A stretch of DNA of 64,000 nt from an uncultured Verrucomicrobiota bacterium (GTDB lineage: Bacteria > Verrucomicrobiota > Kiritimatiellia > CAIQIC01 > Lenti-01). Within the stretch, counting starts at the first letter, position 1; every line of letters begins with the position of its first letter. A program made the position numbers and the translations under genes. The stretch covers positions 25,132-89,131 of the forward strand of contig CALMBO010000014.1 in assembly GCA_937860055.1 (NCBI GenBank). Reading direction: 5' to 3'. The notes under the pieces were generated by a model. It worked only from the letters and a program-made list of their open reading frames with translations. It had not been told where the DNA came from and did no database searches. Of the stretch, positions 28,469 through 54,566 are shown piece by piece.

Positions 28469-31090
28469 CTATGGCGCACCGAAGGATCCGCCGCGATCGA
28501 GGATGCCGATGAGGATCCAGTCACGGTTCCGGATGGGGGCGTAGGCCATCCAGTACGGTCCGGTTACGTGGCAGCGGCCGGGGCGGCACCGGCCATCCAG
28601 AATCCGGCGGACGAAGGTGGAGATTTCCGGGCCGGCTTTTTCGACGTCCACCATTTCCATGCGCGATTGCCAGTCTTCCGCGGAACGCCGGTAGAGGGTG
28701 TCCACCACGATGCGGTGGACGATCCGGGCCTTCCCCGTCCCGGCATCCGTTTCCTCGAAGGGCCGGATCAGGAGGGCCCGCCGCTTGCCCCCGATGGATT
28801 GGGAGAATTCCAGCAGCATCTTTTGCAGGGAGGCCAGCGTGACCTCCAGGCCGACGACGCCGACGTTGCGTCCGCCCGCGTGGATGCGGCACATGCAACT
28901 CATCAGGATCAGGCGGGTGGTGGCGTCGGCATAGGGGTTCCCCCAGACGGGCCGGTCATCGCCGGCTTGGATCGCCGCCAGGTACCAGGTGCGTTTTGTG
29001 GCGTCGTAGTCCGGCTTTTCCCGGTAGCGGCCGAAGCCGGGGAAGCCGACGAGGAGGCCCGCTTCCGAACCGGCGATGGACCATTGGATGTCGTCCCGGA
29101 GCCGGTGGAAATAGGAGAAAAGGGTGTTCAAGCGCCCGAGGCGGGCGGCCGCCTCTTCCACGGCGGGCCGGTGTTCCTCATCCCGCGCCCAGGGCGATCG
29201 GACGACGGTCGGATAGTCCATGGACAGCGGCGCATTGTAACGGGGTTTCTTTTCCAGAACGGCGGGACGGGTCTCGGGGGCGTAGAAGTCCTCGTCGAAA
29301 TAGTAACCATCCCGCCCGGCCGGAGTGGGATCGCGGAAGGGGAGGCGTTCGGCGGGGGCGGACATCAATTCGACCGCCGACAGCCGGTAGAGGGAGGCGA
29401 TCTGCTCGATTCCGGCCAGGAATTGCTCCAGCATCTGGGCCCGTCCGGCGACGGAGGCGGCGAACATGGTTTGTTCGCCTTGGACGGCGAGCGCGCGCTG
29501 GCGGGCGCTCATGGCCACGATGCCTGCGAGTCCGGCCAGGAAAAGCAGGAAGAGGGTGCCGGCGGCGGCCTTCCAGCCGCGTGCATGCCGGGCGGCGCGG
29601 TCGAGCTGGAGCTGCCGGTTGCCGATCTGCGCCGCGAGCTCCTGGCTCTGCGCTTCCACCTGCGCCGCCAGCCGCGAGTCGGCGCAGTCCGCCTTCATCT
29701 CCGCCAGCAGGCGGTGCTGCGCCCGGGCGAGCATCAGGTCGTCCTGCCGGATGGCCAGCTTGATTTGCAGCACGAAAGCGTCCAGCAGGCCGCGGCGGGC
29801 CTCCTGGTTTCCGGGCCACAGGCCGATGGCCTGGCGGAAACTGCCGATGCATTCCGAAAGTTTTCCGTAGCGGATGGCGGCAGCTTCCTTGTCCACCTCC
29901 TTCAAGGTGGCCGAGGCGCGGCCGCCGGCCAGGAGCTCCTGCCGGAGGGAGTCGAGCAGCTCGGAGGCGCGCCGGCACACGGCCATCGATTCGGAGTTGG
30001 CCAGGATCCCGCGAAGGTCCTGCTGGAACTCCGCCACGGTCGGGTAGCGGTCCGCCATGAGGGGCGCCAGGGCTTTTTGCACGATGCGGGAAAGGGCGGG
30101 AGTGATGTGAGGGGAACGGCTGATCTTCTCCGGAGGAGGCACGCCGCCCGTCGAGGCCTTCTTGAGCATCTCCATGACGGTGGCCCCGTCGTGGGGCGGC
30201 CGCCCGGTCAGGATTTCGTACAGGATGCCGCCCAGCAGGTAGATGTCGGTGGCGGGGCCCAACGCGGTCATTTCGCCGCGCACCATCTCCGGGGCCATGT
30301 AGTAGGGCGTTCCGGCCAGCTGGGGTTTCAATCCGGGGAAGCGCTTGTATTCGTTGCGCTCGTCAAAATACAGTGCCAGGCCCCAGTCCATGACATAGAC
30401 TTCGCCGTACTCCCCGAGCATGACGTTCTCCGGCTTGAGGTCGCGGTGGAGGATGGCCTTGCTGTGGGCGTAGGCCACGGCGTCGCAGACCTTCAGCAGG
30501 ATTTCGAGATGGTCCTTCCAGCCCATCTGGCGCGCCCGCGCCTCGACGGTCTCGCGGCGGGCCGGATCCTGGACCGCCTCGGGATGGAGCAGGTCCTTCC
30601 AGCTCGTGCCGGAAACCTTCTTCATGGCGAAGAACGGGCGGCCGTCCGCATCCTTGGCGAGGGCGTAGATGGGCACGACGCCGGGATGGTCCAGCCGAGC
30701 CGTCATGTAGGCCTCGTTGGTGAACTCGCCTGCCTCCTGCGTAGGGGCGGCGCTCGGCTGCAGCTCGACGCGGCAAATCTTCAGCGCCACCTCGCGCTTC
30801 AGTGTCTTTTCCTGGACGTTGTACACGATCCCCATCCCGCCCTCGCTGATCTTTCCGATCACTTCGTAGTGCGAGCGGTCTTCGGGCTGGATTTCGCGGA
30901 GGGAGCCGGTGGAGTCGATGAGGATGCGGTGCCCGCCGTGCGTAATGGTTTCCGTCGGGATCTGGCTGGGGTCGATGTCGTAGACGAGAAACCCCGGCGC
31001 CTGGCTTCGGATGGTCTGGTGGGGTTGGAGGCGGCGGTCGTCTGGAATCCAGTCTCCCGTCCGTGTCCCGCTGGCTGGTTTCGGCTCCAT
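28469..31090 (-). CDS. Ser/Thr protein kinase with TM segment and C-terminal extracytoplasmic Cache-like sensor domain
   Basis: Hanks kinase motifs HRDLKPENVML, DWGLA and GTPYYMAPE. A TM helix (LFLLFLAGLAGIVAMSA) is followed by about 350 aa of C-terminal sensor domain. Confidence 0.8.
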   Translation of the reverse strand: MEPKPASGTRTGDWIPDDRRLQPHQTIRSQAPGFLVYDIDPSQIPTETITHGGHRILIDSTGSLREIQPEDRSHYEVIGKISEGGMGIVYNVQEKTLKREVALKICRVELQPSAAPTQEAGEFTNEAYMTARLDHPGVVPIYALAKDADGRPFFAMKKVSGTSWKDLLHPEAVQDPARRETVEARARQMGWKDHLEILLKVCDAVAYAHSKAILHRDLKPENVMLGEYGEVYVMDWGLALYFDERNEYKRFPGLKPQLAGTPYYMAPEMVRGEMTALGPATDIYLLGGILYEILTGRPPHDGATVMEMLKKASTGGVPPPEKISRSPHITPALSRIVQKALAPLMADRYPTVAEFQQDLRGILANSESMAVCRRASELLDSLRQELLAGGRASATLKEVDKEAAAIRYGKLSECIGSFRQAIGLWPGNQEARRGLLDAFVLQIKLAIRQDDLMLARAQHRLLAEMKADCADSRLAAQVEAQSQELAAQIGNRQLQLDRAARHARGWKAAAGTLFLLFLAGLAGIVAMSARQRALAVQGEQTMFAASVAGRAQMLEQFLAGIEQIASLYRLSAVELMSAPAERLPFRDPTPAGRDGYYFDEDFYAPETRPAVLEKKPRYNAPLSMDYPTVVRSPWARDEEHRPAVEEAAARLGRLNTLFSYFHRLRDDIQWSIAGSEAGLLVGFPGFGRYREKPDYDATKRTWYLAAIQAGDDRPVWGNPYADATTRLILMSCMCRIHAGGRNVGVVGLEVTLASLQKMLLEFSQSIGGKRRALLIRPFEETDAGTGKARIVHRIVVDTLYRRSAEDWQSRMEMVDVEKAGPEISTFVRRILDGRCRPGRCHVTGPYWMAYAPIRNRDWILIGILDRGGSFGAP

Positions 31091-31261
31091 CGGATCCCTC
31101 TAGATACCGGAAGCCTAGCGGCATCCCCGCCGGAAAGGAAGGGGAAAACAGCGTGGACATAATCATCCGGAGGGCGCTTGGAGCGTTGACGGGGGCGGGG
31201 GCGCCCCCTACACTTCGGAGTGGAGAAACACGGTGCGCATCCGGCGGCAAGGAGATAGAAC

Positions 31262-31708
31262 ATGAGCACAACGGTCGGCGATCTGTTGCGGATCAAGGGC
31301 GCGAAGGTGGAGACCATCACGGCGGCGGAGCCGCTGCTGGAGGCGATCCGGCGCATGAGCGAGAAGCACATTGGATGCCTCGCGGTGGTGACCCAGGCGG
31401 GCAAGCTGTCGGGGATCCTGTCCGAGCGCGATGTCCTGTGGAAGGTGGTCGCCGCCGGGGGATCGCCCAAGACGCACCGGGTCAAGGATGCCATGACGCC
31501 GCTGAAGCAGATGCATACGGTGTCGCCCTCGCAGACGGTGGAGGAATGCATGGGGCTGATCACCGCCGGCCGGCACCGCCACCTGCCCGTCCTGGCGGAC
31601 GGGAAGCTGGCCGGGCTGATTTCCATCGGTGACGTGGTGAAATTCATGCTGGATGCCCAGCAGTCGACGATCGACAGCCTGGAAAAATACATCACGGGGA
31701 CCTTCTGA
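31262..31708 (+). CDS. CBS-pair domain protein (copy 1)
   Basis: 148 aa with two CBS motifs. About 88-90% identical to 39356-39802. Directly upstream of hoxF. Confidence 0.8.
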   Translation: MSTTVGDLLRIKGAKVETITAAEPLLEAIRRMSEKHIGCLAVVTQAGKLSGILSERDVLWKVVAAGGSPKTHRVKDAMTPLKQMHTVSPSQTVEECMGLITAGRHRHLPVLADGKLAGLISIGDVVKFMLDAQQSTIDSLEKYITGTF

Positions 31709-31736
31709 GGGAAGGGGAGCCGGCGGAGAGCCTTCC

Positions 31737-33539
31737 ATGTCCTCCAGCATTGCGCAAACGGTGAAGACGGTCGTCTCCCGGTACGGCGGAGATGCAACGA
31801 GGCTGATGGACGTTTTGATCGACGTCCAGGATGAACTGGGCTGCCTGAGCCACGTGACGACGGCGCGGATCGCCCACACGCTGGGCGTGCCGCAGGTGGA
31901 CGTGGAACAGACGGTTTCGTTCTACCATTTCTTCGCGCGCGAGCCGCGCGGGAAATTCGCGGTCTATCTCAACGACAGCGTAGTGGCGGAATTCTGCGGC
32001 CGCGGGGAAGTCGCGCGGGCCTTCGAGGAGGCCGCGGGGTGCCGGTTCGGGGAAGTGACGGCCGACGGCGTCGTCGGGCTGTTCCATACGGCGTGCATCG
32101 GAATGAGCGACCAGGAGCCGGCGGCGCTGGTCAACGGGCAGGTGTTTCCGGCGCTGACGCCGGACAAGGCCCGCGAACTGGTCGCGGGCATGCGCGCCGG
32201 GAAAACGGTCGAGGAGCTCAAGGGCGGCCGGACCGGCGATGGCCAGAACGCCCATCCCCTGGTCCGGGCGCTCGTGCATAACCACATCCGGCGCCGGGGG
32301 GTGATGGTGTTCGACCACTACCAGCCCGGCGAGGCGCTGCGGAAAGTGGTGGCGATGAGTTCCGGCGAGGTGATCGGCGTGGTCAAGGCCGCGAGCGTGC
32401 GGGGGCGGGGCGGCGCCGGATTCCCGACGGGCATGAAGTGGGATTTCGCCCGCCGGGCGGCCGGCGACGTGAAATATGTTTTTTGCAACGCGGACGAAGG
32501 CGAGCCGGGGACCTTCAAGGACCGCGTCATCCTGACGGAGCGGCCGCAGATGGTGATCGAAGGCATGGCGATTGCGGCCTATGCCGTCGGCGCGCAGCGG
32601 GGGATCCTGTACGTGCGGAACGAATACCGCTATCTGCGGTCCTATCTGGAGCACGTGCTGGAGGACATGCGCGCGCAGGGACTGCTGGGCGCCGCGATCT
32701 GCGGCCAGTCCGGATTCGATTTCGACGTCAGCCTGCAGTTCGGCGCGGGCGCCTACGTGTGCGGAGAGGAGTCGGCGCTGATCGAGTCCGCCGAGGGCAA
32801 GCGCGGCGAGCCCCGGGACCGGCCGCCCTTCCCGGTGGAGAAGGGCTATTTGCAGAAGCCGACGGTGGTCAACAACGTCGAAACGCTGTGTTCGGCGGTG
32901 CAGGTGATGCTGAAGGGGGCGGAGTGGTACAACCGGCTCGGCACCGAGAAATCCAAGGGTACCAAGGTGCTGTGCGTGTCGGGCGACTGCGACCGGCCGG
33001 GCATCTACGAGGTGGAATGGGGCTTTTCGGTCAACGACATCCTGCAGGAAGCCGGCGCGCGGGACGTGCAGGCGGTGCAGGTCGGTGGGCCGTCCGGTTC
33101 GTGCATCGGGCCCGGCGAATTCGGCCGCGTGCTGGCCTACGAGGATCTGGCGACGGGGGGATCGTTCATCATCATCGGCCAGCCGCGCGACCTGCTGAAA
33201 GACGTGGTGCTGAATTTCGCCCGGTTTTTCCGCGAGGAGTCGTGCGGGTCGTGCGTGCCGTGCCGGGCGCTGACGGGGATGGCGCAGGTCGTGCTGGAGA
33301 GGGTCATCGCGGGCCGGGGCACGGCGGAAGACGTGGAGCGGCTGCAATCCTGGCAGAAGATCATGAGGAACAACCGCTGCGGCCTGGGCCAGACCGCGCT
33401 GAACCCGGTTGTCAGCACGATCCGGAACTTCCGGCCGCTGTATGACGCGCGGCTGGCGCCGGGCGATCCGCGGTTCGTGCCGGGGTTCGACCTGTCGGCG
33501 GCGGTGAAGGACTACGAGGCGGCGGTCTCGAAAGGATAG
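31737..33539 (+). CDS. hoxF: NAD-reducing [NiFe] hydrogenase diaphorase subunit HoxF (NuoE-like N-terminal domain fused to NuoF-like FMN/NAD/[4Fe-4S] module)
   Basis: GRGGAGFPTGMKW and NADEGEPGTFKDR (NuoF FMN/NAD motifs) and ESCGSCVPCR ([4Fe-4S]). The N-terminal thioredoxin-like domain retains only 2 of the 4 NuoE cysteines. Confidence 0.85.
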   Translation: MSSSIAQTVKTVVSRYGGDATRLMDVLIDVQDELGCLSHVTTARIAHTLGVPQVDVEQTVSFYHFFAREPRGKFAVYLNDSVVAEFCGRGEVARAFEEAAGCRFGEVTADGVVGLFHTACIGMSDQEPAALVNGQVFPALTPDKARELVAGMRAGKTVEELKGGRTGDGQNAHPLVRALVHNHIRRRGVMVFDHYQPGEALRKVVAMSSGEVIGVVKAASVRGRGGAGFPTGMKWDFARRAAGDVKYVFCNADEGEPGTFKDRVILTERPQMVIEGMAIAAYAVGAQRGILYVRNEYRYLRSYLEHVLEDMRAQGLLGAAICGQSGFDFDVSLQFGAGAYVCGEESALIESAEGKRGEPRDRPPFPVEKGYLQKPTVVNNVETLCSAVQVMLKGAEWYNRLGTEKSKGTKVLCVSGDCDRPGIYEVEWGFSVNDILQEAGARDVQAVQVGGPSGSCIGPGEFGRVLAYEDLATGGSFIIIGQPRDLLKDVVLNFARFFREESCGSCVPCRALTGMAQVVLERVIAGRGTAEDVERLQSWQKIMRNNRCGLGQTALNPVVSTIRNFRPLYDARLAPGDPRFVPGFDLSAAVKDYEAAVSKG

Positions 33540-33552
33540 GGAGGAGCGAGCC

Positions 33553-34248
33553 ATGGCCAGCTTTGTCCGGTACACGCTTGACGGCAAGACCTGCCTGGCG
33601 GAGGAGGGCACGCAGCTGGTCGCGGCGGCGCGGGACTCGGGGGTGTACATTCCGACGCTGTGCAACCATCCCGGAATCCCTCCCAAGGGTTCGTGCCGCA
33701 TCTGCACGGTGCTGGTCAACGGGATTCCCCAGACCGCCTGCACGACGAAGGTGGTCGAAGACATGAACGTGACGACGGGCACGCCGGAGCTGGAGGCGTT
33801 CCGCAAGGCGGTTGTCGAGATCCTGTTCGCGGAGGGAAACCATCTGTGCCCGTCGTGCGAGCGCAGCGGCAACTGCGAGCTGCAGGCGCTGGCGTACCGC
33901 TACCGCGTGACGGTTCCGCACTTCCCCTATTTGTTTCCGAAGCGCGACGTGGAGGCGTGGCATCCGAAGCTCGTCAAGGACCACAACCGGTGCATCCAGT
34001 GCAAGCGCTGCATCCGCGGCATCCACAACGCGGAAGGCAAGGCCCTCTTCGCTTTTGGAAAGCGCGGCGACAAGGTGGTCATCAACATCGACCCGGACAC
34101 CTCGCGCGACATCGGCGACGAGCTGGCGCAGCAGGCGATGGACATCTGCCCCGTCGGGGCGATCCTGCGGAAGGGCAAGGGCTTCGACGTGCCCATTGGC
34201 CGGCGCCGGTACGACCGGGAGCCCATCGGGAGCGAGGTGAAGCCATGA
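33553..34248 (+). CDS. hoxU: hydrogenase diaphorase subunit HoxU ([2Fe-2S] plus [4Fe-4S] ferredoxin; NuoG N-terminal-like)
   Basis: CNHPGIPPKGSCRIC and CPSCERSGNCELQ, CIQCKRCIRG, and CPVGAI cluster motifs. Confidence 0.85.
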   Translation: MASFVRYTLDGKTCLAEEGTQLVAAARDSGVYIPTLCNHPGIPPKGSCRICTVLVNGIPQTACTTKVVEDMNVTTGTPELEAFRKAVVEILFAEGNHLCPSCERSGNCELQALAYRYRVTVPHFPYLFPKRDVEAWHPKLVKDHNRCIQCKRCIRGIHNAEGKALFAFGKRGDKVVINIDPDTSRDIGDELAQQAMDICPVGAILRKGKGFDVPIGRRRYDREPIGSEVKP

Positions 34249-34814
34249 CCGCGAAGGCGCCCCGGGCCAGGAAGATCGTCGCGACGACCTCGCTGGCCGG
34301 CTGCTTTGGCTGCCACATGTCGCTGCTCGACATCGACGAGCGGATCCTCGACCTGATCGAGCTGGTGGAATTCAACAAGTCGCCGATCGACGACATCAAG
34401 ACGTTCACCAAGGAATGCGACATCGGGCTGATCGAGGGGGGGTGCTGCAATGACGAGAACGTGCACGTGCTGACGGAATTCCGCCGGCACTGCAAGACGC
34501 TGGTGGCGTTCGGGGAGTGCGCGTTGATGGGCGGGCTGCCGGCGCTGCGCAACTTCCTTCCGCTGAAGGAATGCCTGGAGGAGGCGTACTTGAACGGGCC
34601 GACGGTGGCCGGCGAAAACCCGGGGAGGATCATCCCGCACGATCCCGACATCCCGAAGATCCTGAACCGCGTCTATCCCTGCCACGAGGTGGTGAAGATC
34701 GACTACTTCCTGCCCGGTTGCCCGCCGAGCGCGGACCTCATCTGGGACGCGCTGGTCGCCCTGGTGACCGGCAAGGAGCTGGAACCGCAATACCGGACCT
34801 TCAAATTCGACTGA
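34245..34814 (+). CDS. hoxY: [NiFe] hydrogenase small subunit HoxY
   Basis: ATGA overlap with hoxU. Small-subunit proximal-cluster cysteines present (GCFGCHMS, GGCCND, GECA..GG, and PGCPP). Confidence 0.85.
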   Translation: MTAKAPRARKIVATTSLAGCFGCHMSLLDIDERILDLIELVEFNKSPIDDIKTFTKECDIGLIEGGCCNDENVHVLTEFRRHCKTLVAFGECALMGGLPALRNFLPLKECLEEAYLNGPTVAGENPGRIIPHDPDIPKILNRVYPCHEVVKIDYFLPGCPPSADLIWDALVALVTGKELEPQYRTFKFD

Positions 34815-34822
34815 GAGCCGCC

Positions 34823-36277
34823 ATGACCCGCAAAATCGTCATCGAACCCGTCACGCGCGTCGAAGGCCATGGCAAGGTCACGATCCACCTCGACGACGAA
34901 GGGAATGTCGCGCAGAGCCGGTTCCACATCGTGGAATTCCGCGGCTTCGAGCGGTTCGTGCAGGGGCGGCCGTACTGGGAGGCGCCGGTGCTGGTGCAGC
35001 GCCTGTGCGGCATTTGTCCGGTCAGCCACCATCTGGCCGGGGCGAAGGCCATGGACGTCGTGGTCGGCGCGGGGACGGGGGAGGGGCTGACGCCCACCGC
35101 CGAGAAGATCCGCCGCCTCATGCACTACGGACAGATCTTCCAGTCCCACTCGCTGCATTTCTTCCACCTGGCCTCGCCCGATCTCCTGTTCGGCTACGAC
35201 TCCCCGCCCGAGACGCGCAACGTGATCGGCATCGCCATGGCGAACCGCGAACTGGCGACGCAGGCGGTCCTGATGCGCAAATACGGGCAGGAGGTCATTG
35301 CCGCCACCGCCGGCAAGAAGATCCATGGCACGGGCGCGGTTCCCGGCGGCGTGAACAAGAGCCTGACCGCCGAGGAGCGCGACCGCCTGCTCAAGGGGGA
35401 CGGCGGGCCGCTCAACGCCGGCCAGATGGTCGCCTGGGCGCAAGGCGCGCTGGAGCTCTTCAAGGATTACTACCGGAAGCACAAGGACTTCATCGACCGA
35501 TTCTCCTCCTTTCCCTCGAACCACCTGAGTCTGGTGCGCAAGGACGGCGCGCTCGACCTCTACCACGGCGTCCTGCGCGCCGTGGACGCGAACGGAAAGC
35601 GGATCCTGAACGACGTGGACTACCAGGAATACCTCCAGCATCTGCGCGAGGAGGTGAAGTCCTGGAGCTACATGAAGTTCCCGTTCCTGAAGGCGCTGGG
35701 GAGGGAGAACGGCTGGTACCGCGTGGGTCCGCTTGCGCGGCTCAACACGGCCGACTTCATCCCGACCCCGCTGGCGCAGAAGGAATTCGAGGGCTACAAG
35801 GCTGCCACGGGCGGCAAGCCCAACAACATGTGCATGCACACGCACTGGGCCCGGCTGATCGAGATCCTCCATGCCGCCGAAAAGATGCGCGAGCTGCTGC
35901 AGGATCCGGACATCCTGGGCGGCGACCTTGTCGTGAAGGGCCGGCGGCAGCCCGAGGGTGTTGGCATCATCGAGGCTCCGCGCGGCACGCTGATCCACCA
36001 CTTCAGGGTCGGCGAGGACGACCTGATCCAGATGGCGAACCTGATCGTCTCCACCACGCACAACAACGAGCCGATGAACCGCGCCGTGAACGGCGTCGCC
36101 CGCTCGATGCTGACGAAGGCCAGGGAAATCACCGAAGGCATGCTCAACGCCGTCGAAGTGGCGATCCGGGCCTACGATCCGTGCCTGAGCTGCGCCACCC
36201 ATGCCTACGGACGGATGCCGCTGGAGGTTTTGCTCTATGACGACCGGGGCCAGCTCCTCGCGCGCCGGCGGAAATAG
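34823..36277 (+). CDS. hoxH: [NiFe] hydrogenase large subunit HoxH
   Basis: N-terminal RVEGHG and RLCGICPVSH (RxCGxC), and C-terminal DPCLSCATH (DPCxxCxxH) Ni-Fe ligands. Confidence 0.9.
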   Translation: MTRKIVIEPVTRVEGHGKVTIHLDDEGNVAQSRFHIVEFRGFERFVQGRPYWEAPVLVQRLCGICPVSHHLAGAKAMDVVVGAGTGEGLTPTAEKIRRLMHYGQIFQSHSLHFFHLASPDLLFGYDSPPETRNVIGIAMANRELATQAVLMRKYGQEVIAATAGKKIHGTGAVPGGVNKSLTAEERDRLLKGDGGPLNAGQMVAWAQGALELFKDYYRKHKDFIDRFSSFPSNHLSLVRKDGALDLYHGVLRAVDANGKRILNDVDYQEYLQHLREEVKSWSYMKFPFLKALGRENGWYRVGPLARLNTADFIPTPLAQKEFEGYKAATGGKPNNMCMHTHWARLIEILHAAEKMRELLQDPDILGGDLVVKGRRQPEGVGIIEAPRGTLIHHFRVGEDDLIQMANLIVSTTHNNEPMNRAVNGVARSMLTKAREITEGMLNAVEVAIRAYDPCLSCATHAYGRMPLEVLLYDDRGQLLARRRK

Positions 36278-36728
36278 CGCGCGTCCGGTCCTGGTCTACG
36301 GCTACGGGAATCCGGGCCGGCAGGACGACGGGCTGGGCATCGCCCTCGTCGACCGCCTCGAAAGCTGGGCGGCGGCGGAGAAGATCGGCGGCCTTGTTTT
36401 CGATTCCAACTACCAGCTCAACGCCGAGGACGCCCTTGCCGTCGCGGAGAGCCGGGCCGTCGTATTCGTGGATGCCACGGGGGAAGGGGAGGGGCCGTTT
36501 GAATTCCGCCGTCTGGCGCCGCAGGCCGCGATCGCCTTTTCCACCCATGCCATGGCGCCGGAAGGAGTGCTGGCGTTCGCGGCCGAGCTCTACGGGGCGA
36601 GGACGCCGGCGTGGATGATGGCCATCCGCGGGCATGCGTGGGAACCGAACGAGCCGCCGACCGCCGCCGCCCTTCTGAACCTGGCGGCCGCGCAGGAATT
36701 CCTCCAATCCTGGCTGCGCGGAAGGTGA
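36237..36728 (+). CDS. hoxW: hydrogenase maturation endopeptidase (HoxW/HycI family)
   Basis: VLVYGYGNPGRQDDGLGIALVDRL motif of hydrogenase C-terminal proteases. The start is uncertain and overlaps the 3' end of hoxH. Confidence 0.7.
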   Translation: MTTGASSSRAGGNSARPVLVYGYGNPGRQDDGLGIALVDRLESWAAAEKIGGLVFDSNYQLNAEDALAVAESRAVVFVDATGEGEGPFEFRRLAPQAAIAFSTHAMAPEGVLAFAAELYGARTPAWMMAIRGHAWEPNEPPTAAALLNLAAAQEFLQSWLRGR

Positions 36729-36734
36729 GTGGAA

Positions 36735-39152
36735 TCAGGTGTCGAGGATCTGCCTCACCTTGGTGGACAATTCCAGCATGGTGAAGGGCTTCTGGATGAA
36801 GTTCACCCCGTCGTCGAGAACGCCATGGCGGGCGATGATGTCGGCGGTATAGCCGGAGATGAAGATGCACTTGAGATGGGGGTGGGTGGCGAGGACGTGT
36901 TCGGCGAGTTCGCGGCCATTCATCTCGGGCATGATCACATCGACCATCAGCAGGTGGATGGCTTCGGAGTGCTTCTGGGCCAGCTGGATGGCTTCGCCCG
37001 GAGTGGCGGCATCGAGGACCCGGTAGCCGAGCTTTTCCAGCATGCTCTTGCCGAGGGCGAGGATGGCGGGTTCGTCTTCCACCAGCAGGATGGTTTCCCG
37101 GCCCTCGGCCCGCCGGCCGGCCAGGCCATTGGGTTTCGGAGCTTCGGCTTCGACCGCATGCCGGGGCAGATAGATCCGGAAGGTGGAGCCATGGCCGGGT
37201 TCGCTGTCCACGTCGATATAGCCGTTGTTCTGCTTGACGATGCCGTAGACGGTGGCGAGGCCCAGGCCGGTTCCCTTGCCCATGGCCTTGGTGGTGAAGA
37301 AGGGTTCGAACAGCTTCCCGAGGGTGGTCTTGTCCATGCCTTCGCCGGTGTCGCAGACCGAGAGCATGACGTAGTCGCCCGGTTGGGAGCCGTGATGCGC
37401 GGCGCAGAAAGCTTCGTCGAAGCTGATGTTGGCCGTTTCGATGGTGATTTTCCCGACGCCGTGGATGGCATCGCGGGCATTGACGCACAGGTTGGTGAGG
37501 ATCTGGTCGATCTGGGAGGGGTCCGCCTTCACCGGGTCGAGATCCAGTCCCGGCCGCCAGACGAGATCGATGTTCTCCCCGATGAGGCGGCGGAGCATGT
37601 GGAGCATGCCGTCCACGGTGGTGTTCAAGTCGAGCACACGGGCGAGGATGGTCTGCTTGCGGGCGAACGCCAGCAACTGGCGGGTCAGGTCCGCGGAGCG
37701 TTCGGCGGCCTTGCGGATTTCCTTGAGTTCGGCGTGGTGGGGCTGGCCCAGGCCGGTATCCTCCAGCAGCAGCTCCGTGTAGCCGAGGATGGCGCCCAGC
37801 ATGTTGTTGAAGTCGTGGGCGACTCCGCCTGCCAGCCGGCCGACCAGTTCCATCTTCTGGGCCTGCGCCAGCTGGGCCTGGAGGCGGTCCTGCTCCTCCT
37901 CGGCCCGCTTGAGGCTGGTGATGTCGGTGTGCAGGCCGACCAGCCCCAGGATGCGGCCTTCGGGATTCTGGATGGCGTAGGCCCTCAGGAGGATGTCCAG
38001 GATGGTCTTGTCCTTCTTGAACATTTTGACTTCGCCCTGCCAGTTTCTTCCCGCCTTGATCGCGGCGAAGACCTGGTGTCCGACTTCGGGGTCCACATAG
38101 GCGGTTTCGCAAGGGTTTTCGCCGACGTCGCCGAACAGGTTGCCGAAGGCCCGGTTCTGGTAGAAGTGCTTTCCGGCGGGTGTGGCCATCCCGATGGCGT
38201 CGGAGGAGTCCTCCACCAGTGCCTTGAACAGGTGCAGTTCCTCGTTCCGCGCCTTGAGCTCGCGCGTTCGGAGGGCCACCTGGCGTTTCAGCAGGAGGCT
38301 GCCGAGGAGGCTCAGCAGCAGGAGGGCGGCGAGCAGGGGGCCGGCAACCTTGAGCCAGGCGGGGAAAATGAATTCCAGCTCTTCGGAGGTCCATCGCTGC
38401 AGGGAAAGATAGTACACGGAAGACCGGTCGCGCTTCATCTCCGCCAGGTGCTGGTCGAGGGCGTTGAGGAGGAAGCGGCGGCCCGTCTTGGGCGTTGCGA
38501 AGTACAGGCGCGTAGGGCTGAAGATGATCGCGGTGTCCTCCAGCGGGCCGCCCCGGGGCTGGATGGCGCCATAGAAGCGGTTGGCGACCACCGCGTCCAC
38601 CTCGCCCTTGGTTACGGCGGCAAAGGCGGACGGATAGTCCGGCATCGGCACGACGACGACGTTCAGCTCGAAGCCGCTGGCCATGTTTTCGAAGACGGAC
38701 TGCTGGATCGAGCCTTCGAGCACGGCCAGCCGCTTGCCGTCCAGGTCCACCAGGGACCGGATGCCGCACCCGCGCCGCGCATAGATCTGGAACCAGTCCG
38801 ACAGCACCGGTTCGTGATGGAAGGCATAGCGGGTTTCGCGTTCGACCGTGAACGCGACATCGGGCATGAGATCGATTTCACCCTTGGCCAGCCGATCCAG
38901 GCATTCGACCCAGGTTCCCGGCACGTATTCGATCGCCCAGCTCTCCTTCGCCGCGATGTCCTCGATCAGGTCGACAAAGATGCCGAGAGGGCGCCCGGAT
39001 TCGGACCAGGCCACCTTGGGGATGTTCTGGTAGAGGCCCACGCGGATGGGGGTCTTGACGTTCTGGGCGTAGACGGAGAAACATGCCAACCCGGCCAGGA
39101 GGCTGAATCCGCCAATCGAAGCCCATGCGAACTTCTTCAAACGAGTGCCCAT
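36735..39152 (-). CDS. hybrid sensor histidine kinase: periplasmic solute-binding-protein-like domain, TM, PAS, HisKA, HATPase_c, C-terminal REC
   Basis: H-box [15 protein letters not shown] boxes ([15 protein letters not shown]). A receiver block (ILLVEDEP...[11 protein letters not shown]...K). The N-terminal SBP_bac_3-like region lies between a signal/TM segment and a second TM. Confidence 0.85.
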
Positions 39153-39355
39153 TTCATGGAAGAGGTTATCGCAAACCGATGGAGGAAACAAGTCGGGAGA
39201 AGACCTTGTTGCATTTTATCCGGAGGCCCTCCGCCGGGTGCTCTTTCCTCCCTTCTGGGGCGGGAAATGGGGCGTTGACGGAAACAGGGGGAGGGGAATA
39301 AAGTTCCCCACGGCGAATTATCATCTGCGAATCCCAACCGGAGGAAGAAGCGATC

Positions 39356-39802
39356 ATGAGCACGACAGTCGGCGATCTGTTGCGGATCAAGGGTGCGAAG
39401 GTGGAGACCATCTCGGCGTCGGAGACGATCCTGGAGGCGATCCGGCGCATGAGCGAGAAGCACATCGGCTGCCTTGCGGTGGTGACCCGGGCGGGCAAGC
39501 TGTCGGGGATCCTGTCCGAGCGCGATGTCCTGTGGAAGGTGATCGCCGCGGCGAAGTCGCCGAAGACGAACCGGGTGAAGGACGCGATGACGCCGCTGAA
39601 GCAGATGAAGACGGTATCCCCGTCCCAGACGGTGGAGGAGTGCATGGCGCTGATGACGGGGCGGCGGCATCGCCACCTGCCGGTGCTGGCGGACGGGAAG
39701 CTGGCGGGGCTGATTTCCATCGGCGATGTGGTGAAATTCATGCTGGATGCCCAGCAAGCGACGATCCAGAGCCTGGAAAAGTACATCACAGGGACGTTCT
39801 AG
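39356..39802 (+). CDS. CBS-pair domain protein (copy 2)
   Basis: About 88-90% amino-acid identity and about 90% nucleotide identity to 31262-31708. Directly upstream of the [FeFe] hydrogenase genes. Confidence 0.8.
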   Translation: MSTTVGDLLRIKGAKVETISASETILEAIRRMSEKHIGCLAVVTRAGKLSGILSERDVLWKVIAAAKSPKTNRVKDAMTPLKQMKTVSPSQTVEECMALMTGRRHRHLPVLADGKLAGLISIGDVVKFMLDAQQATIQSLEKYITGTF

Positions 39803-39805
39803 GCG

Positions 39806-40384
39806 ATGTCGGCGGCGGGGGGAAGCGGGGAAACGGGAGACGGAGCGATGACGAAGACCTGCACGTGCGCCTGCGCGGAAGCCGCGCCGGACGAAAAAGA
39901 GCTGATGGGACGGCTGGAGGAAGTTCTGGCCGAGCAGAAAGACAAGCCGGGCGGATTGATTCCGGCGCTGCAGACGGCGCAGGCCATTTTTGGATATCTG
40001 CCGGAAAATGCGCTGCGGCGGGTGGCGCAGGCCTTCGACAAGTCGCACAGCGAGGTGGCGGGGGTGGTCTCGTTCTACTCGTTCTTCTCGACGGTGCCGC
40101 GCGGCAAGTACCTCGTCCGCGTCTGTCTGGGCACGGCATGCTATGTGCGCGGCGGCAACGAAGTGCTGCGGGCGATGAAGGACAAGCTGGGGATCGACGT
40201 GGGCGGGACGACGCCGGACCGCCAGTTTTCGCTGGAAGTGGGCCGTTGCTTCGGCGCCTGCGGCATGGCGCCGGTGCTGATGGTCAACGACGACCTGCAC
40301 CAGCGCGTCAAGCCGGCGAAGCTGGGCGAATTGCTGGAGAAATACCGCGCGCAGGCGGTGCCGGCGCAGGAGGCCAAGCCGTGA
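39806..40384 (+). CDS. hydC: NuoE-like thioredoxin-fold [2Fe-2S] subunit of [FeFe] hydrogenase (HydC/HndA-like)
   Basis: All four NuoE cysteines are present (CLGTACYVRG ... CFGACGMAP). The alternative start at 39848 has a better RBS. Confidence 0.8.
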   Translation: MSAAGGSGETGDGAMTKTCTCACAEAAPDEKELMGRLEEVLAEQKDKPGGLIPALQTAQAIFGYLPENALRRVAQAFDKSHSEVAGVVSFYSFFSTVPRGKYLVRVCLGTACYVRGGNEVLRAMKDKLGIDVGGTTPDRQFSLEVGRCFGACGMAPVLMVNDDLHQRVKPAKLGELLEKYRAQAVPAQEAKP

Positions 40385-43300
40385 CCAGGCATCTGAAGAA
40401 GATCGAATCGGGCGAAGCGCTGGCGGCCTGGCGGGACCAGCTGCGCAAGGCGGAAAAAACCGCGCAGGAAGTGCGGATCTGCATGGGCGGCAGCTGCCTG
40501 GCGTCGGGCGCGCCGGAGATTGCGGCGGCGTTCCGGAAGGAGCTGGCGGCGGCCGGGCTGGCGGAAACGGTCGCGGTGCGCGCGGCCGGCTGCATGGGGC
40601 CCTGCGTGCGCGGGCCGGTGCTGCGGCTCGGCGATGGAACCTTCTACCAGGGCGTGAAGCCCGAAGACGCGGCGGAAATCGTCCGCGAGCATCTGGCCGG
40701 CGGTCGCGTCGTGGACCGGCTGATCGCCCATGACGAGGCCGGCGGCAAGCCGCAGGCGACCGACGGCGAGATTCCCTTTTTCACGAAGCAGACGCAGATC
40801 GTGCTGCGCAACTGCGGGCACATCGATCCGGAACGGATCGAGGAGTACGTCGCGCGCGACGGCTACGCGGCGCTGGCGAAGGTGCTGGGCGGGCTGAAGC
40901 CCGAACAGGTGGTCGAGGAGATGAAGGGCTCCGGCCTGCGGGGGCGCGGCGGCGCCGGTTTCCCGACCTTCATGAAGTGGGAGTTCACCCGGCGGGCGCC
41001 GGGCGAGACGAAATACGTGCTGTGCAACGCCGATGAAGGCGATCCGGGCGCCTACATGGACCGCAGCGTGCTGGAGGGCGATCCGCACAGCGTGATCGAA
41101 GGCATGGCGATCGCGGCTTTCACCATCGGAGCGGTGCAGGGCTATGTCTACGTGCGCGCGGAGTATCCGCTGGCCGTGGCGCGGCTGAAGAAGGCGATCG
41201 AGCAGGCCCGCGCGTGCGGGTTCCTGGGCAAGCACGTGCTGGGAACGGATTTCCATTTCGATCTCGACATCCGGATGGGCTCCGGCGCGTTTGTCTGCGG
41301 CGAGGAGACGGCGCTGATCGCGTCCATCGAGGGATTGCGGGGCGAGCCGCGGCCGCGGCCGCCGTTTCCGGCGCAGAAGGGGCTGTGGGGCAAGCCGACG
41401 GTGCTCAACAACGTGGAAACCTACGCCAACGTGCCGGCGATCCTGCTGAACGGCGCGGCCTGGTATGCGAAGTGGGGAACCCCCAAGAGCAAGGGGACGA
41501 AAGTCTTCGCGCTGGCCGGCTGCGTGAAGAACACGGGGCTGGTGGAGGTGCCGGTGGGAACCTCGCTGGGCGAACTGATTTACGACATCGGCGGCGGCAT
41601 CCGGGGCGACAAGGCCTACAAGGCGGCGCAGATCGGCGGGCCGTCGGGCGGCTGCATTCCGAAGCAGAACCTGAACGTGCCGCTGGACTACGAAAGCCTG
41701 CAGGAGCTGGGCGCGATCATGGGTTCGGGCGGCCTGATCGTGATGGACGAAGACACCTGCATGGTGGACGTGGCGCGGTTCTTCATCGAGTTCGTGCAGG
41801 AGGAATCCTGCGGCAAGTGCGTGCCGTGCCGGGTGGGCACGAAGCGCATGGGCGAGATCCTGCAGCGCATCTGCGACGGCGACGGGGAGATGGCGGACAT
41901 CGAGCGCCTCGAGAAGCTGGGGGCGTTCATCAAGGAGTCGTCGCTGTGCGGGCTGGGGCAGACGGCGCCGAACCCGGTGCTGTCGACGATCCGGCATTTC
42001 CGCGAGGAATACGTGCAGCACATCCGCGACAAGCATTGCGCGGCGGGCGTGTGTCCGGCGCTGGTGCTGGCGCCGTGCCTGAGCGCATGCCCGGCGGGAG
42101 TGCAGGTGCCGGGATTCGTCTCGCTGGTGGGGGAGGGCCGCTACGCGGAGGCGCTGAAGCTGCACCGCGAGCGCAATCCGTTCGCGGCCATCTGCGCGCG
42201 GGTGTGCTTCCACACCTGCGAAGACCACTGCCGGCGCAGCTCGCTGGACGCGCCGGTCGCGATCCGCGGCATCAAGCGCTTCATGGTGGACCAGGAAGTG
42301 ACGATCGTGAAGCCCGCGGTGCTCGAGAACGCGGCCAACGCGGCGCGCAAGGTGGCGATCGTCGGCGCGGGTCCGGCGGGGCTGACCTGCGCGTATTTCC
42401 TGGCGCGGCTGGGATACAAGCCGGTCGTCTACGAGGCCGAGCCGCGGCCGGGCGGCATGCTGGTGCAGGCCATTCCGGCCTACCGGCTGCCCCGCGAGAC
42501 GCTGGCGCGCGAGATCCGCATGATCGAATCGCTGGGCGTCGAGATCAAGACCCTCCAGCGGCTCGGCAAGGATTTCACGCTGCCGAAGCTGCGGGAGGAC
42601 GGTTGCGAGGCCGTTTTCCTGGCGGTGGGCGCGCCCGAGGGGCTGGGACTGGAGCTGCCGGGCAGCGATGCCAAGGGCGTGGTGGATTCGATGGATTTCC
42701 TGCGGCAGTACAACATCCGCGGTTCGGCGCCGGTGGGCAAGGACGTCGTGGTGATCGGCGGCGGCAACGCGGCGATCGACGCGGCGCGGACGGCGCTGCG
42801 GCTGGGGGCGGAGCGCGTCACGGTGGTCTATCGCCGCACGCGCGAGCAGATGCCGGCCTATGCCGAGGAAATCGAGGAGGCGCAGCAGGAAGGCGTGCAC
42901 CTGCGGACGCTGTGCGCCCCCGAGAAATTCGAGGTTGAAGGCGGGAAGATCACCGGGCTGGTTTGCCGGCGGATGACGCTGGGCGATTTCGACCGCAGCG
43001 GGCGGCGCAAGGCGCAGGCCGGGGACGATTCGGCGATGGAGACGATCCCCTGCGACCAGGCGATCCTGGCGATCGGGCAGCGGCTCGACGCGAAGGCGGT
43101 GCTGGGCAAGGTCGAGGCGGCGGTGGCCGGCGGCTGGATCCAGGCCGATCCGACGACGGGCCGGACGGCGGTGCCGTGGCTGTTCGCGGGCGGCGACGCG
43201 GTCACGGGGCCGTCGTCGGTGGTGGAAGCCATCGCCGCGGGCGAACGCGCGGCGGTCGGCATCGATGCGATGCTGACGGGCGCGGAGCATGCCTTCTGGC

Positions 43301-43515
43301 GCGGCTATCCCGACGTGCCGACGGACTACGATCCGGAGGCGGATCCGGTGCCGTATCCGCGCGAGGATCCCAACCTGATCGAACTGGAGCGGCGGAAGAA
43401 CAACTTCGACGAGGTCGAGCAGCCGTGGAACGAAGCCACGGCGCGGCGGCAGGCGCGGCGGTGCCTGCGGTGCGACTACGGCAAGACCGGCAAGGTGAGG
43501 GGAGCGGCGACATGA
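40381..43515 (+). CDS. hydB: NuoF-like flavoprotein subunit (HydB) fused to a C-terminal GltD/NfnB-like FAD-NAD(P)H oxidoreductase domain
   Basis: GTG start overlaps the hydC stop. N-terminal thioredoxin-like domain. NuoF motifs GRGGAGFPTFMKW, NADEGDPGAYMDR and ESCGKCVPCR. Two extra [4Fe-4S] sites (CPALVLAPCLSACP, CARVCFHTCEDHC). Two Rossmann sites (VAIVGAGPAGL, VVVIGGGNAAID). Length about 1044 aa. Confidence 0.85.
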   Translation: MTRHLKKIESGEALAAWRDQLRKAEKTAQEVRICMGGSCLASGAPEIAAAFRKELAAAGLAETVAVRAAGCMGPCVRGPVLRLGDGTFYQGVKPEDAAEIVREHLAGGRVVDRLIAHDEAGGKPQATDGEIPFFTKQTQIVLRNCGHIDPERIEEYVARDGYAALAKVLGGLKPEQVVEEMKGSGLRGRGGAGFPTFMKWEFTRRAPGETKYVLCNADEGDPGAYMDRSVLEGDPHSVIEGMAIAAFTIGAVQGYVYVRAEYPLAVARLKKAIEQARACGFLGKHVLGTDFHFDLDIRMGSGAFVCGEETALIASIEGLRGEPRPRPPFPAQKGLWGKPTVLNNVETYANVPAILLNGAAWYAKWGTPKSKGTKVFALAGCVKNTGLVEVPVGTSLGELIYDIGGGIRGDKAYKAAQIGGPSGGCIPKQNLNVPLDYESLQELGAIMGSGGLIVMDEDTCMVDVARFFIEFVQEESCGKCVPCRVGTKRMGEILQRICDGDGEMADIERLEKLGAFIKESSLCGLGQTAPNPVLSTIRHFREEYVQHIRDKHCAAGVCPALVLAPCLSACPAGVQVPGFVSLVGEGRYAEALKLHRERNPFAAICARVCFHTCEDHCRRSSLDAPVAIRGIKRFMVDQEVTIVKPAVLENAANAARKVAIVGAGPAGLTCAYFLARLGYKPVVYEAEPRPGGMLVQAIPAYRLPRETLAREIRMIESLGVEIKTLQRLGKDFTLPKLREDGCEAVFLAVGAPEGLGLELPGSDAKGVVDSMDFLRQYNIRGSAPVGKDVVVIGGGNAAIDAARTALRLGAERVTVVYRRTREQMPAYAEEIEEAQQEGVHLRTLCAPEKFEVEGGKITGLVCRRMTLGDFDRSGRRKAQAGDDSAMETIPCDQAILAIGQRLDAKAVLGKVEAAVAGGWIQADPTTGRTAVPWLFAGGDAVTGPSSVVEAIAAGERAAVGIDAMLTGAEHAFWRGYPDVPTDYDPEADPVPYPREDPNLIELERRKNNFDEVEQPWNEATARRQARRCLRCDYGKTGKVRGAAT

Positions 43516-45287
43516 TCCACGTCACGATCAACGGCAAGGCGATCGAGGTTGCCGAAGGGTCCACGATCCTGCAGGCGGCGAAATCGGCGGGCATCCAGAT
43601 CCCGACGCTGTGCTTCCTGGAGAAGCGCGAACCCGTCGGCGCGTGCCGGGTGTGCCTGGTGGAGGTGGAGGGGGCGCGGACGCTGGTGGCGTCGTGCTCG
43701 ACGCCCTGCACGGAAGGCCAGGTGGTGCATGTCAACAGCCCCAAGGCGCGCGCGGCGCGCAAGCAGGTGGTCGAGCTGCTGCTGTCCGAGCACGACGGCG
43801 ACTGCCAGACCTGCGAGCGCAACGAGGACTGCGAGCTGCGGAAGCTGGCCAGCGACATGGGGATCCGGACGGTGACCTACGGCGGGAAGCGCGCGGCGGC
43901 GCATCTGGACGAGAGCACGCCGGGGCTGGTGCGCGACAATTCCAAGTGCATCAAATGCCGCCGGTGCGTAACGGTCTGCAACCAGGTGCAGGGCGTCGGC
44001 GCGCTGTTTCCTCAGGGCCGCGGCTTTTCCACGGTGATCGGGCCCGCGTTCGCGGCCGACCTGGCGGGCGTGACCTGCGTGCAGTGCGGCCAGTGCGCGG
44101 CGATCTGCCCGGTGGGGGCGATCACCGAGCGCAGCGCCATCGACGCCGTGTGGGCGGCGCTGGACGATCCGTCCAAGACGGTGGTGGTCCAGACCGCGCC
44201 GGCGATCCGCGCGGCGCTGGGCGAGGAATTCGGCTATCCGCCCGGCACGCGCGTGACGGGCAAGATGACGACGGCCCTGCGCCAGATGGGGTTCGACGCG
44301 GTGTTCGACACGAATTTCGCGGCCGACCTGACCATCATGGAGGAAGGCACGGAGCTGCTGACCCGCCTGAAACGGGCCCTGGTGGACAAGGACAAGACGG
44401 CGGCGCTGCCGATGTTCACGAGCTGCTCGCCGGGGTGGATCCAGTTTGCGGAGTACTACTATCCGAACTTCCTCGACCATCTGTCCACCTGCAAGTCGCC
44501 GCAGCAGATGTTCGGCGCGGTGGCCAAGACGTTCTACGCGCAGAAGATCGGCAAGAAGCCGGAAGACCTCGTGGTGGTGTCGGTGATGCCGTGCACGGCG
44601 AAGAAGTTCGAGGCGCAGCGGCCCGAGATGAACGCCAGCGGCGCACGCGACGTCGATCATGTCCTCACCACGCGCGAGCTGGCGCGGATGATCCGGCAGG
44701 CGAACCTGGCATTCACGGAGCTGCCGGACGGCGAGATGGACGCGCCGCTGGGTCTCTCCACGGGCGCGGCGGACATCTTCGCGAACACGGGCGGGGTGAT
44801 GGAAGCGGCGTTGCGCACGGCCTACGAGATCGTGACGGGGCGGGAGCTGCCGGTCGAGAACCTGCATGTGAAGCCCATCGAGGGGCTCGACGGCATCAAG
44901 GAGGCGTCGCTCAAGATCGAGCGGACGCAGCCGGCGTGGTCGTTCCTGGAAGGAGTCGAGCTGAAGGTGGCGGTGTCGCACGGGCTGGGCAACACGCGGA
45001 AACTGCTGGAAAAAATCCGGTCCGGCGATGCGAGCTACCATTTCATCGAAGTGATGACGTGTCCCGGCGGCTGCATCGGCGGCGGCGGTCAGCCGCGGTT
45101 CACGGACGACAGCGTCCGCCTGAAGCGCATCTCGGCGATTTATGCGGAGGACGAGTCCAAGAAGCTGCGCAAGTCGCACGACAATCCGGCGGTGCAGGAG
45201 CTCTACAGGGAATTCCTCGGCAAGCCGCTGGGGCACCGGTCGCACGAACTGCTGCACACGGGCTACCGCGCGAAAGAGCGCCGCTGA
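43512..45287 (+). CDS. hydA: [FeFe] hydrogenase catalytic subunit HydA (M3-type: [2Fe-2S], His-ligated [4Fe-4S], 2x[4Fe-4S] ferredoxin, H-domain)
   Basis: H-cluster motifs L2 MPCTAKKFE and L3 EVMTCPGGCIGGGGQP are canonical. L1 reads TSCSPGW instead of TSCCPxW. N-terminal ferredoxin clusters present. ATGA overlap with hydB. Confidence 0.9.
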   Translation: MIHVTINGKAIEVAEGSTILQAAKSAGIQIPTLCFLEKREPVGACRVCLVEVEGARTLVASCSTPCTEGQVVHVNSPKARAARKQVVELLLSEHDGDCQTCERNEDCELRKLASDMGIRTVTYGGKRAAAHLDESTPGLVRDNSKCIKCRRCVTVCNQVQGVGALFPQGRGFSTVIGPAFAADLAGVTCVQCGQCAAICPVGAITERSAIDAVWAALDDPSKTVVVQTAPAIRAALGEEFGYPPGTRVTGKMTTALRQMGFDAVFDTNFAADLTIMEEGTELLTRLKRALVDKDKTAALPMFTSCSPGWIQFAEYYYPNFLDHLSTCKSPQQMFGAVAKTFYAQKIGKKPEDLVVVSVMPCTAKKFEAQRPEMNASGARDVDHVLTTRELARMIRQANLAFTELPDGEMDAPLGLSTGAADIFANTGGVMEAALRTAYEIVTGRELPVENLHVKPIEGLDGIKEASLKIERTQPAWSFLEGVELKVAVSHGLGNTRKLLEKIRSGDASYHFIEVMTCPGGCIGGGGQPRFTDDSVRLKRISAIYAEDESKKLRKSHDNPAVQELYREFLGKPLGHRSHELLHTGYRAKERR

Positions 45288-45322
45288 TCATTTCCGGCGC
45301 AGAGCCGGCGGCGGGAATCCGT

Positions 45323-50849: not shown

Positions 50850-50852
50850 GGA

Positions 50853-51995: not shown

Positions 51996-52123
51996 GTCCT
52001 TGTCCTATGGCACGGCGCAGACGTTTATTCAGATCCGATTGGGCCCCCATTGGGCCCCAAGGTCAATGGAAAAAATCCTTTTCAATCAAATAACAGGGGC
52101 GGCGGGCCGCAGGGGGGGCGGAA

Positions 52124-54475: not shown

Positions 54476-54566
54476 AGAAATCCATTTTGGACGAAATGCG
54501 CCGGAAAGGAAACTGCTAAATTGAGCGCTTGCCAAGGGGGGCGGTTTTCGGTGTGGTAGGCGGGCG

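Follow-up and report, generated by a model that had tools for sequence, protein, structure and literature searches.

Two CBS-pair genes head two different hydrogenase operons

We analyzed a 64,000-nucleotide stretch of DNA (hereafter the window) from an uncultured Kiritimatiellia-like bacterium of the Planctomycetes-Verrucomicrobia-Chlamydiae (PVC) group, in which two closely similar CBS-domain genes each stand at the head of a different hydrogenase operon. CBS copy 1 (31262..31708) and CBS copy 2 (39356..39802), both on the plus strand, are open reading frames for 148-residue proteins in which the Pfam CBS domain (PF00571) is matched twice (E values 2.6e-23 and 8.9e-26; 82.5 and 90.4 bits, cut-off 24), as a first-pass annotation of the window had reported. 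An exact-sequence look-up of both proteins returned no record. The genes differ at 52 of 447 nucleotides (88.4% identity), with 11, 6 and 35 differences at the first, second and third codon positions, and the proteins differ at 16 residues; the near-identity claimed earlier therefore holds, with exact values replacing the earlier estimates of about 17 residues and about 90% nucleotide identity. Strong similarity between the copies is confined to the coding sequence, from the ATG to the stop codon, and the pair is the top direct repeat in the window, with a start-to-start distance of 8094 nt.

CBS copy 1 is followed after 28 nt by a cluster of genes for a Hox-type bidirectional NAD(P)-linked [NiFe] hydrogenase, an assignment made from domain matches, with 3d as the candidate subgroup. 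These genes, all on the plus strand, encode a HoxF-like diaphorase subunit (31737..33539; a fusion of a NuoE-like 2Fe-2S and a NuoF-like FMN/NADH domain, matched by Pfam 2Fe-2S_thioredx, Complex1_51K and NADH_4Fe-4S and by NCBIfam nuoF_fam at E 2.8e-115), a HoxU-like Fe-S subunit with a NuoG-like N-terminus (33553..34248; Pfam Fer2_4, NADH-G_4Fe-4S_3 and Fer4_Nqo3), a HoxY-like small subunit (34245..34814; Pfam Oxidored_q6), a HoxH-like large subunit (34823..36277; Pfam NiFeSe_Hases, NCBIfam) and a HoxW-like maturation protease (36237..36728), the endopeptidase of the cluster, which matches NCBIfam TIGR00072 (53.6 bits, cut-off 47.45) and has no Pfam match. The start codons of hoxY and hoxH were checked, and tblastn showed that this gene order is kept in more than 20 loci.

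CBS copy 2 precedes a trimeric HydABC-type [FeFe] hydrogenase operon, also on the plus strand, so that domain matches bear out the operon assignments proposed earlier for both copies. The first gene encodes HydC, a NuoE-like 2Fe-2S subunit (39848..40384; Pfam 2Fe-2S_thioredx, E 2.1e-47), whose start probably lies at 39848, 45 nt past the CBS stop codon and at a conserved MTKTCTCAC, rather than at 39806. HydB (40381..43515) is NuoF-like (Pfam Complex1_51K and NADH_4Fe-4S; NCBIfam nuoF_fam), and HydA (43512..45287) is the H-cluster catalytic subunit (Pfam Fe_hyd_lg_C, E 1.2e-96, and Fe_hyd_SSU; NCBIfam NF040763, 881 bits, cut-off 765).

At about 1044 residues, HydB differs from canonical HydABC-type HydB by an extra C-terminal NAD(P)H-FAD module resembling GltD/NfnB (Pfam Fer4_20 and Pyr_redox_2; NCBIfam PRK12771). 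All CBS-linked hyd loci have this fusion, including those in which CBS identity is as low as 56%. The fusion is reminiscent of the GltD module in the Stn transhydrogenases (PMC10482914), here carried on the HydB of a true [FeFe] hydrogenase, and it may mark an NADPH-coupled variant of HydABC; the paper on the Hydrogenedentota Bfu makes no mention of CBS or GltD. HoxF on the one hand and HydC plus HydB on the other contain homologous NuoE/NuoF domains, recognized by Pfam and NCBIfam and detectable also as repeats within the window. Judged by these domain matches, the NuoE/NuoF-like NADH-flavin module is the only part common to both enzymes.

Both operons start from related predicted promoters

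A promoter scan of 15 kb found three sigma-70-like sites, and both plus-strand sites lie 48-52 nt before a CBS start codon. The predicted promoter of the CBS1-hox operon (31186..31214; TTGACG, 17 nt, TACACT) has -35 and -10 elements that are invariant across hox-type loci, and that of the CBS2-hyd operon (39275..39304; TTGACG, 18 nt, TAAAGT) is conserved across hyd-type loci. Both upstream regions contain the -35 context GCGTTGACGG, a spacer of 17-18 nt and a TAnAnT -10 element about 50 nt before the ATG, and they align collinearly with each other and with those of relatives. Because of these common features, the ancestral duplicated unit probably included the promoter. The upstream regions had been described as unrelated in the first-pass annotation; this holds for strong similarity, which stops at the borders of the coding sequence, but not for the promoters.

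We observed two further elements near these genes. A partly palindromic A-rich box, ACAAAATGCG(TTTTG), lies about 25 nt upstream of the -35 element in hox-type promoters (loci are cited by number; e.g. L005, 4260-4280, and L009, 8925-8945) and is found in hox-type upstream regions only, not in hyd-type ones; in the window it is degenerate (GAAAACAGCG, about 31145-31155). This box could be an activator site or an UP element. Separately, in L006 (10475-10552), L010, L012, L013 and L018 a conserved intergenic element, about 125 nt in length, separates the CBS stop codon from hydC. The L006 element folds as an imperfect hairpin of some length (-52 kcal/mol, z -3.7). The window, L002 and L017 have no such element, and other GC-rich sequences, judged by eye and unfolded, occupy this position in L005 and L011. 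The hairpin may be an insertion resembling a repetitive extragenic palindrome (REP) or miniature inverted-repeat transposable element (MITE), or a signal for transcript processing or attenuation. Rfam assigned it to no family, giving a sub-threshold chance match only, and returned nothing at gathering threshold for window positions 30900-46000.

Linkage of the CBS gene to hydrogenase operons is conserved in relatives

A word-indexed protein search yielded thousands of homologues of the CBS proteins. The best 120 show 84-93% identity, and those with a named source belong to Kiritimatiellia or Verrucomicrobia metagenome-assembled genomes (MAGs). For gene context we used 34 loci from a scan of species-representative genomes and 80 loci from a metagenome scan, annotated by tblastn with the window proteins. 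Among CBS copies of 55-93% identity with at least 400 nt of downstream sequence, a set that was not de-replicated and in which several members are identical, 51 of 56 lie directly before a hydrogenase gene (hoxF in 25 cases, hydC in 26). Linkage persists at 56-62% CBS identity (L064, L065 and L067). The five exceptions form a single orphan clade of about 70-73% identity (L022, 10001-10444, and L057-L060, with L057 and L058 the same in sequence), in which the CBS gene adjoins genes for lpxK, a polysaccharide deacetylase and a phosphoribosyltransferase.

Both CBS copies are present in ten other genomes, with the two operons adjacent on one contig in three (L002, L005 and L011) and on separate contigs in the remainder. 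In these three loci, and in the metagenome contigs L035 and L049, the order is CBS-hoxFUYHW-CBS-hydCBA, the second CBS gene following directly after hoxW. Two contigs from one JGI metagenome, L070 and L038, are 99-100% identical to the window, and L038 has a kinase gene upstream of CBS2. Contig L070 (Ga0172375_10032609), which is 100% identical to the hox operon of the window, starts within CBS1, at residue 91. The CBS repeat is probably a point at which assemblies break, which could hide or mimic rearrangements in MAGs.

The CBS proteins have the fold and ligand motifs of a Bateman module

An AlphaFold2 model (pLDDT 88.8) comprises a Bateman module, built from two beta-alpha-beta-beta-alpha repeats, and a helix at residues 122-145, and the top Foldseek matches are all CBS pairs (probability 1.00, root-mean-square deviation (rmsd) 1.5-2 Å). 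The closest known structure is 4FRY (phmmer E 1.8e-30, 45% identity, rmsd 1.5 Å), to whose residues 5-151 residues 1-147 of the query align, a full-length collinear match that includes the C-terminal helix; 2RC3 and 3FHM follow (E 6e-20 and 6e-18), the three together spanning 36-45% identity and a Foldseek rmsd of 1.5-1.9 Å. These proteins (BamMC406_4587, NE2398 and Atu1752, respectively) fall in the same length class as the window proteins and have two CBS motifs. A C-terminal tail motif, TIxxLExYIxG, occurs in all copies and aligns in 4FRY and more weakly in 3FHM, while the 2RC3 chain stops at about residue 132; 4FRY also has the MSTTV N-terminus of the window proteins. In contrast to the window clade, with its invariant Cys39 (in IGCL), all three lack this cysteine. 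They are not known as hydrogenase-linked, and homologues at such a distance were never linked in the loci examined. As structural-genomics entries without an assigned function, they explain the fold of the window proteins, not their role.

The window copies agree in their predicted ribose-binding motifs, GILSERD (51-57) and GLISIGD (118-124), and in a basic stretch, RHRH (104-107). Both ribose-binding motifs fit the pattern G-h-h-S/T-x-x-D, which marks a ribose-phosphate binding site where it follows the final strand of a CBS motif. Across all hox- and hyd-linked copies, 47 positions are invariant, among them G51, E55-D57, R104, R106, H107, G118 and S121-D124. None of the 16 residues at which the window copies differ falls within the ligand motifs. 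The same is true of positions 14, 90-91, 135 and 138, which discriminate best between hox- and hyd-linked copies and are located in loops and the C-terminal helix. Two cysteines, C39 and C96 (31376-31378 and 31547-31549 in copy 1, and likewise in copy 2), occur without exception in the hydrogenase-linked copies; a Cys39/Cys96 redox switch is conceivable.

Better characterized single Bateman modules among the structural neighbors include plant CBSX1/CBSX2, cyanobacterial CBS-CP12, CbpB/DarB and AcuB, which are only 22-33% identical to the window proteins and of which none is known to be hydrogenase-linked. Their ligands are adenylates or c-di-AMP, and they control a partner protein by contacting it directly; AcuB is encoded in the operon of the enzymes with which it acts. 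Among the neighboring structures are 4GQY, 3SL7, 5NMU and 9S4x entries with AMP, ADP or Ap4A. We rejected membership in the CbpB/DarB c-di-AMP receptor family (NCBIfam NF041630) on score: the two proteins reach 32.4 and 37.2 bits where the cut-off is 125, and only half of the protein is matched. Rv2626c of M. tuberculosis (Hypoxic response protein 1; 1XKF/1Y5H), likewise a stand-alone CBS pair, is comparable in size (phmmer E 2.3e-9, rmsd about 2 Å) and is induced under low-oxygen, reductive conditions; it is 25% identical to the window proteins and lacks both the C-terminal helix motif and a hydrogenase operon context.

Small nucleotide-binding partners of hydrogenases have a precedent in HoxI, which binds NADPH, has a cyclic-nucleotide-binding-like fold and is encoded after hoxW at the end of its operon. 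To our knowledge, HoxI is not known for [FeFe] enzymes. HoxI resembles CBS copy 1 in being a small operon-encoded protein of a HoxFUYH-type enzyme, and it is found in two copies per R. eutropha enzyme. In R. eutropha, HoxI2 has been described as an accessory subunit that is loosely attached to the NAD+-reducing [NiFe] hydrogenase and has no counterpart in Complex I (PMC3189943). We considered and rejected the window proteins as HoxI-type subunits, since they have the CBS-pair fold and their gene lies upstream of hoxF instead of after hoxW; the likeness is one of analogy only, with no homology expected.

A proposed role at the NADH-flavin module of both hydrogenases

The idea that a small CBS-pair protein was duplicated to serve both H2-metabolising complexes, put forward in the first-pass annotation, fits the linkage in relatives and the purifying selection on the copies (see below), while the part that makes it a sensor or regulator is one that we infer. 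The observed gene anatomy, predicted promoters, conserved arrangement, purifying selection, fold and conserved ligand motifs are consistent with the following model. Each CBS paralogue, as the promoter-proximal first gene, would be co-transcribed with its own NAD(P)H-linked hydrogenase. Its product would bind a dinucleotide or adenylate in the canonical CBS clefts, with NAD(H) as the leading candidate in view of the NAD+ reported in 2RC3 and 4FRY, and a CBS dimer would dock on the NuoE/NuoF-like NADH-flavin module (HoxF, or HydC plus HydB), so tuning H2 production or uptake to the redox or energy state of the cell. The few paralogue-specific residues outside the ligand motifs would provide partner specificity. 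We regard it as an even call whether, as this model has it, the CBS paralogues sense NAD(H) or adenylates and serve the shared NuoE/F-like module as accessory subunits or regulators, each specific to its own operon.

Several observations weigh against this model. The orphan clade, at about 70-73% identity, has no hydrogenase link, and none of the 43 homologues below 55% identity has an adjoining hydrogenase gene; the CBS family is therefore not intrinsically a hydrogenase component. One locus (L015) has a single CBS gene ahead of hox plus hyd, and another (L055) has a hox operon without a CBS gene followed by CBS-hyd. In ten longer representatives with strong CBS matches we found no fusion to NuoE/NuoF or hydrogenase domains, the additional domains being only extra CBS, CheC/CheX, GGDEF or DUF835. 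The paralogue-specific positions tell the two groups apart only in part (mutual information 0.26-0.51 bits). As a class, CBS-pair proteins accept many ligands, and the NAD+ listed as bound in 2RC3 and 4FRY in a survey of NAD+ conformations in the PDB (bioRxiv 10.1101/2020.07.07.192161) comes from two structural-genomics crystals of homologues with 45% identity, which does not establish it as the physiological ligand. Co-transcription, ligand identity, physical docking and the regulatory effect are likewise steps of the model that go beyond what we observed.

The CBS proteins might instead be signaling adaptors that act with neighboring kinases (Ser/Thr, hybrid histidine or PAS-GAF) to control hydrogenase transcription and do not bind the enzymes. 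A Ser/Thr protein kinase gene with a Cache-like sensor region (28469..31090, minus strand; Pfam Pkinase, E 2.1e-36, with a dCache/MCP-like PDC) is divergent from CBS1, is syntenic upstream of CBS-hox in L014, L025 and L056, and lies downstream in L052. Between the operons, where the first-pass annotation had located it, is a gene for a hybrid sensor kinase (36735..39191; Pfam SBP_bac_3-PAS-HisKA-HATPase-REC, with the SBP_bac_3 domain periplasmic), now corrected to the minus strand. A homologue of this kinase (48-51% identity) comes just after hyd in L039 and L046 and just after hox in L054. The region downstream of hydA (45712-54781) encodes a PAS-GAF histidine kinase, a multi-PAS protein, a FIST protein and a second Ser/Thr kinase, a density of PAS, GAF, FIST and kinase genes that would suit such signaling, and stand-alone CBS proteins such as CbpB/DarB act by binding other regulators. 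However, in most loci neither kinase adjoins the CBS gene, whereas linkage to hoxF or hydC is near-universal. The hybrid kinase, missing between the operons in L002, L005, L011, L035 and L049, is outside the conserved operon unit. The CBS protein has neither a DNA-binding nor a receiver domain, and the first-gene position in a structural operon, occupied twice, would be more typical of a subunit or enzyme-level regulator. We therefore consider an adaptor role unlikely, and prefer the model of an accessory protein at the NADH-flavin module.

The CBS duplication is not recent

Another possibility is that the pair is a recent duplicate or a freshly converted pair, of importance mainly as a recombination substrate able to delete the [NiFe] operon. 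Of ten within-genome pairs, that of the window is the closest, with 50 differences versus 60-83 and a longest identical run of 52 nt versus 22-41 nt. By the Nei-Gojobori method, its nonsynonymous divergence (dN) is 0.061 and its synonymous divergence (dS) 0.333 (dN/dS 0.185), compared with a dN of 0.088-0.111, a dS of 0.35-0.78 and a dN/dS of 0.12-0.26 in the nine other pairs. Both CBS copies are thus under purifying selection (dN/dS 0.12-0.26), and all copies are exactly 148 residues long, without insertions or deletions. We rejected dS as a clock because it is weakly informative here: GC content at third codon positions (GC3) is about 0.89, and the within-clade ranges for paralogues (0.33-0.78) and orthologues (0.33-0.65) overlap.

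As a measure of saturation, we compared the observed synonymous codon differences with the number expected under draws from local codon usage. The window pair is at 47% of saturation (27/57), other paralogue pairs are at 48-80%, orthologue pairs at 30-63% and deep comparisons at 100% or more. Because synonymous differences have reached 47% of saturation, the duplication does not appear to be recent, and the two genes are better described as a long-standing paralogue pair. The phylogeny called for in the first-pass annotation points the same way for the closest clade, where copies in a neighbor-joining tree group mainly by operon context (bootstrap support of 93-100 in the hox subclades, 74-100 in the hyd subclades); the pairing of the window copies with one another is weak (bootstrap <60). 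The earlier suggestion of a recent duplication thus fails on the presence of both copies in ten other genomes, their grouping by context, and the dS and saturation of the window pair.

Gene conversion, the other process suggested earlier, fares differently at different scales. Within the window pair, the hox-linked copy (WIN_hox) has the hyd state at three of seven diagnostic sites, and both copies share a stretch (about nt 335-360) that is unlike their nearest orthologues. However, a Sawyer-type maximal-run permutation test on the pair was not significant (P = 0.12), triplet tests of the 3SEQ kind with ten choices of parents found no significant tract (all p > 0.05), and the context residues (S135/D138 versus A135/Q138) are kept in the window. 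Over longer timescales, same-lineage copies resemble each other more than same-context copies elsewhere: in the crown clade, hox- and hyd-linked copies are 84.9% identical, and deeper copies, whatever their context, are as close to the one group as to the other, to within 2%. This covariation across lineages would fit a converted pair, and it suggests episodic homogenisation, or repeated re-duplication of a promoter-plus-CBS cassette, across lineages.

The first-pass annotation had also predicted that the repeats could mediate an 8.1-kb deletion. In principle, repeats that are 88% identical and include an identical run of 52 nt could recombine. Among about 60 loci, we found no unambiguous product of this deletion, and the two-copy arrangement is retained wherever both operons are seen. 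In L016, a hox-type promoter (-10 TACACT plus an AAAATGC box) is followed by a CBS gene and then hydCBA. This arrangement is what a CBS-CBS deletion would leave and is compatible with one, though ambiguous; a blastn search of the 7.9-kb upstream region of L016 against all other loci found no shared flank. With both copies in ten other genomes, context grouping in the crown group, the synonymous divergence and the results of the conversion tests set against the high similarity of the window pair, we think it doubtful that recency or fresh conversion, with a role chiefly in recombination, accounts for these genes.

That the CBS protein is a general housekeeping nucleotide sensor placed here by promoter sharing or genomic drift, or else an assembly factor for the flavin/Fe-S module, strikes us as improbable: the wider 4FRY-like family (40-50% identity, about 145-150 residues) is widespread and not hydrogenase-linked, and a related lineage has an orphan copy, but two paralogues have each stayed in first position, in different hydrogenase operons, at 56-93% identity, with context-associated residues and strong purifying selection, and nothing in the sequence hints at chaperone or cofactor-insertion activity.

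A low-GC region elsewhere in the window

Apart from the hydrogenase operons, we observed a jump in GC content from 0.49-0.55 (positions 1-18 kb) to 0.61-0.70 thereafter, with GC3 rising from about 0.6 to about 0.85. A gene for a large serine recombinase (17552-19225) and a 5'-truncated gene for a ComM/YifB-like Mg-chelatase (19318-20313) lie at this boundary, and the low-GC part contains mostly unknown open reading frames, together with a phage GP88-like gene and a radical-SAM gene. From this gene content, window positions 1-20313 look like a prophage or integrative element inserted in comM.

Implications for hydrogenase regulation

A more specific form of the accessory-protein model, which we advance tentatively and think more probably wrong than right in its details, is that the CBS proteins are dedicated NAD(H)-sensing allosteric subunits on the NuoE/F-like module of the Hox and HydABC-GltD enzymes. 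They would gate H2 evolution or uptake (or bifurcation) by the NADH/NAD+ ratio, and episodic conversion, or re-duplication of promoter plus CBS gene, would keep the copies alike.

A ligand-sensing CBS protein as the partner of an enzyme is known, and our literature searches turned up no paper that connects a CBS protein with hox or hyd operons. The significance of such a link, past gene anatomy and conservation, is a matter of interpretation. For NAD(P)H-linked and electron-bifurcating hydrogenases, a conserved operon-encoded nucleotide sensor common to [NiFe] and [FeFe] enzymes would be a concrete candidate for an enzyme-level regulator or extra subunit. If the more specific form of the model is correct, these proteins would represent a previously undescribed class of hydrogenase regulatory subunit. 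This would matter for heterologous expression and structural work, as a hydrogenase complex may be incomplete without its CBS protein. The locus would also offer a natural case in which one small module, duplicated with its promoter, leads two non-homologous catalytic systems that share only an NADH-flavin module.

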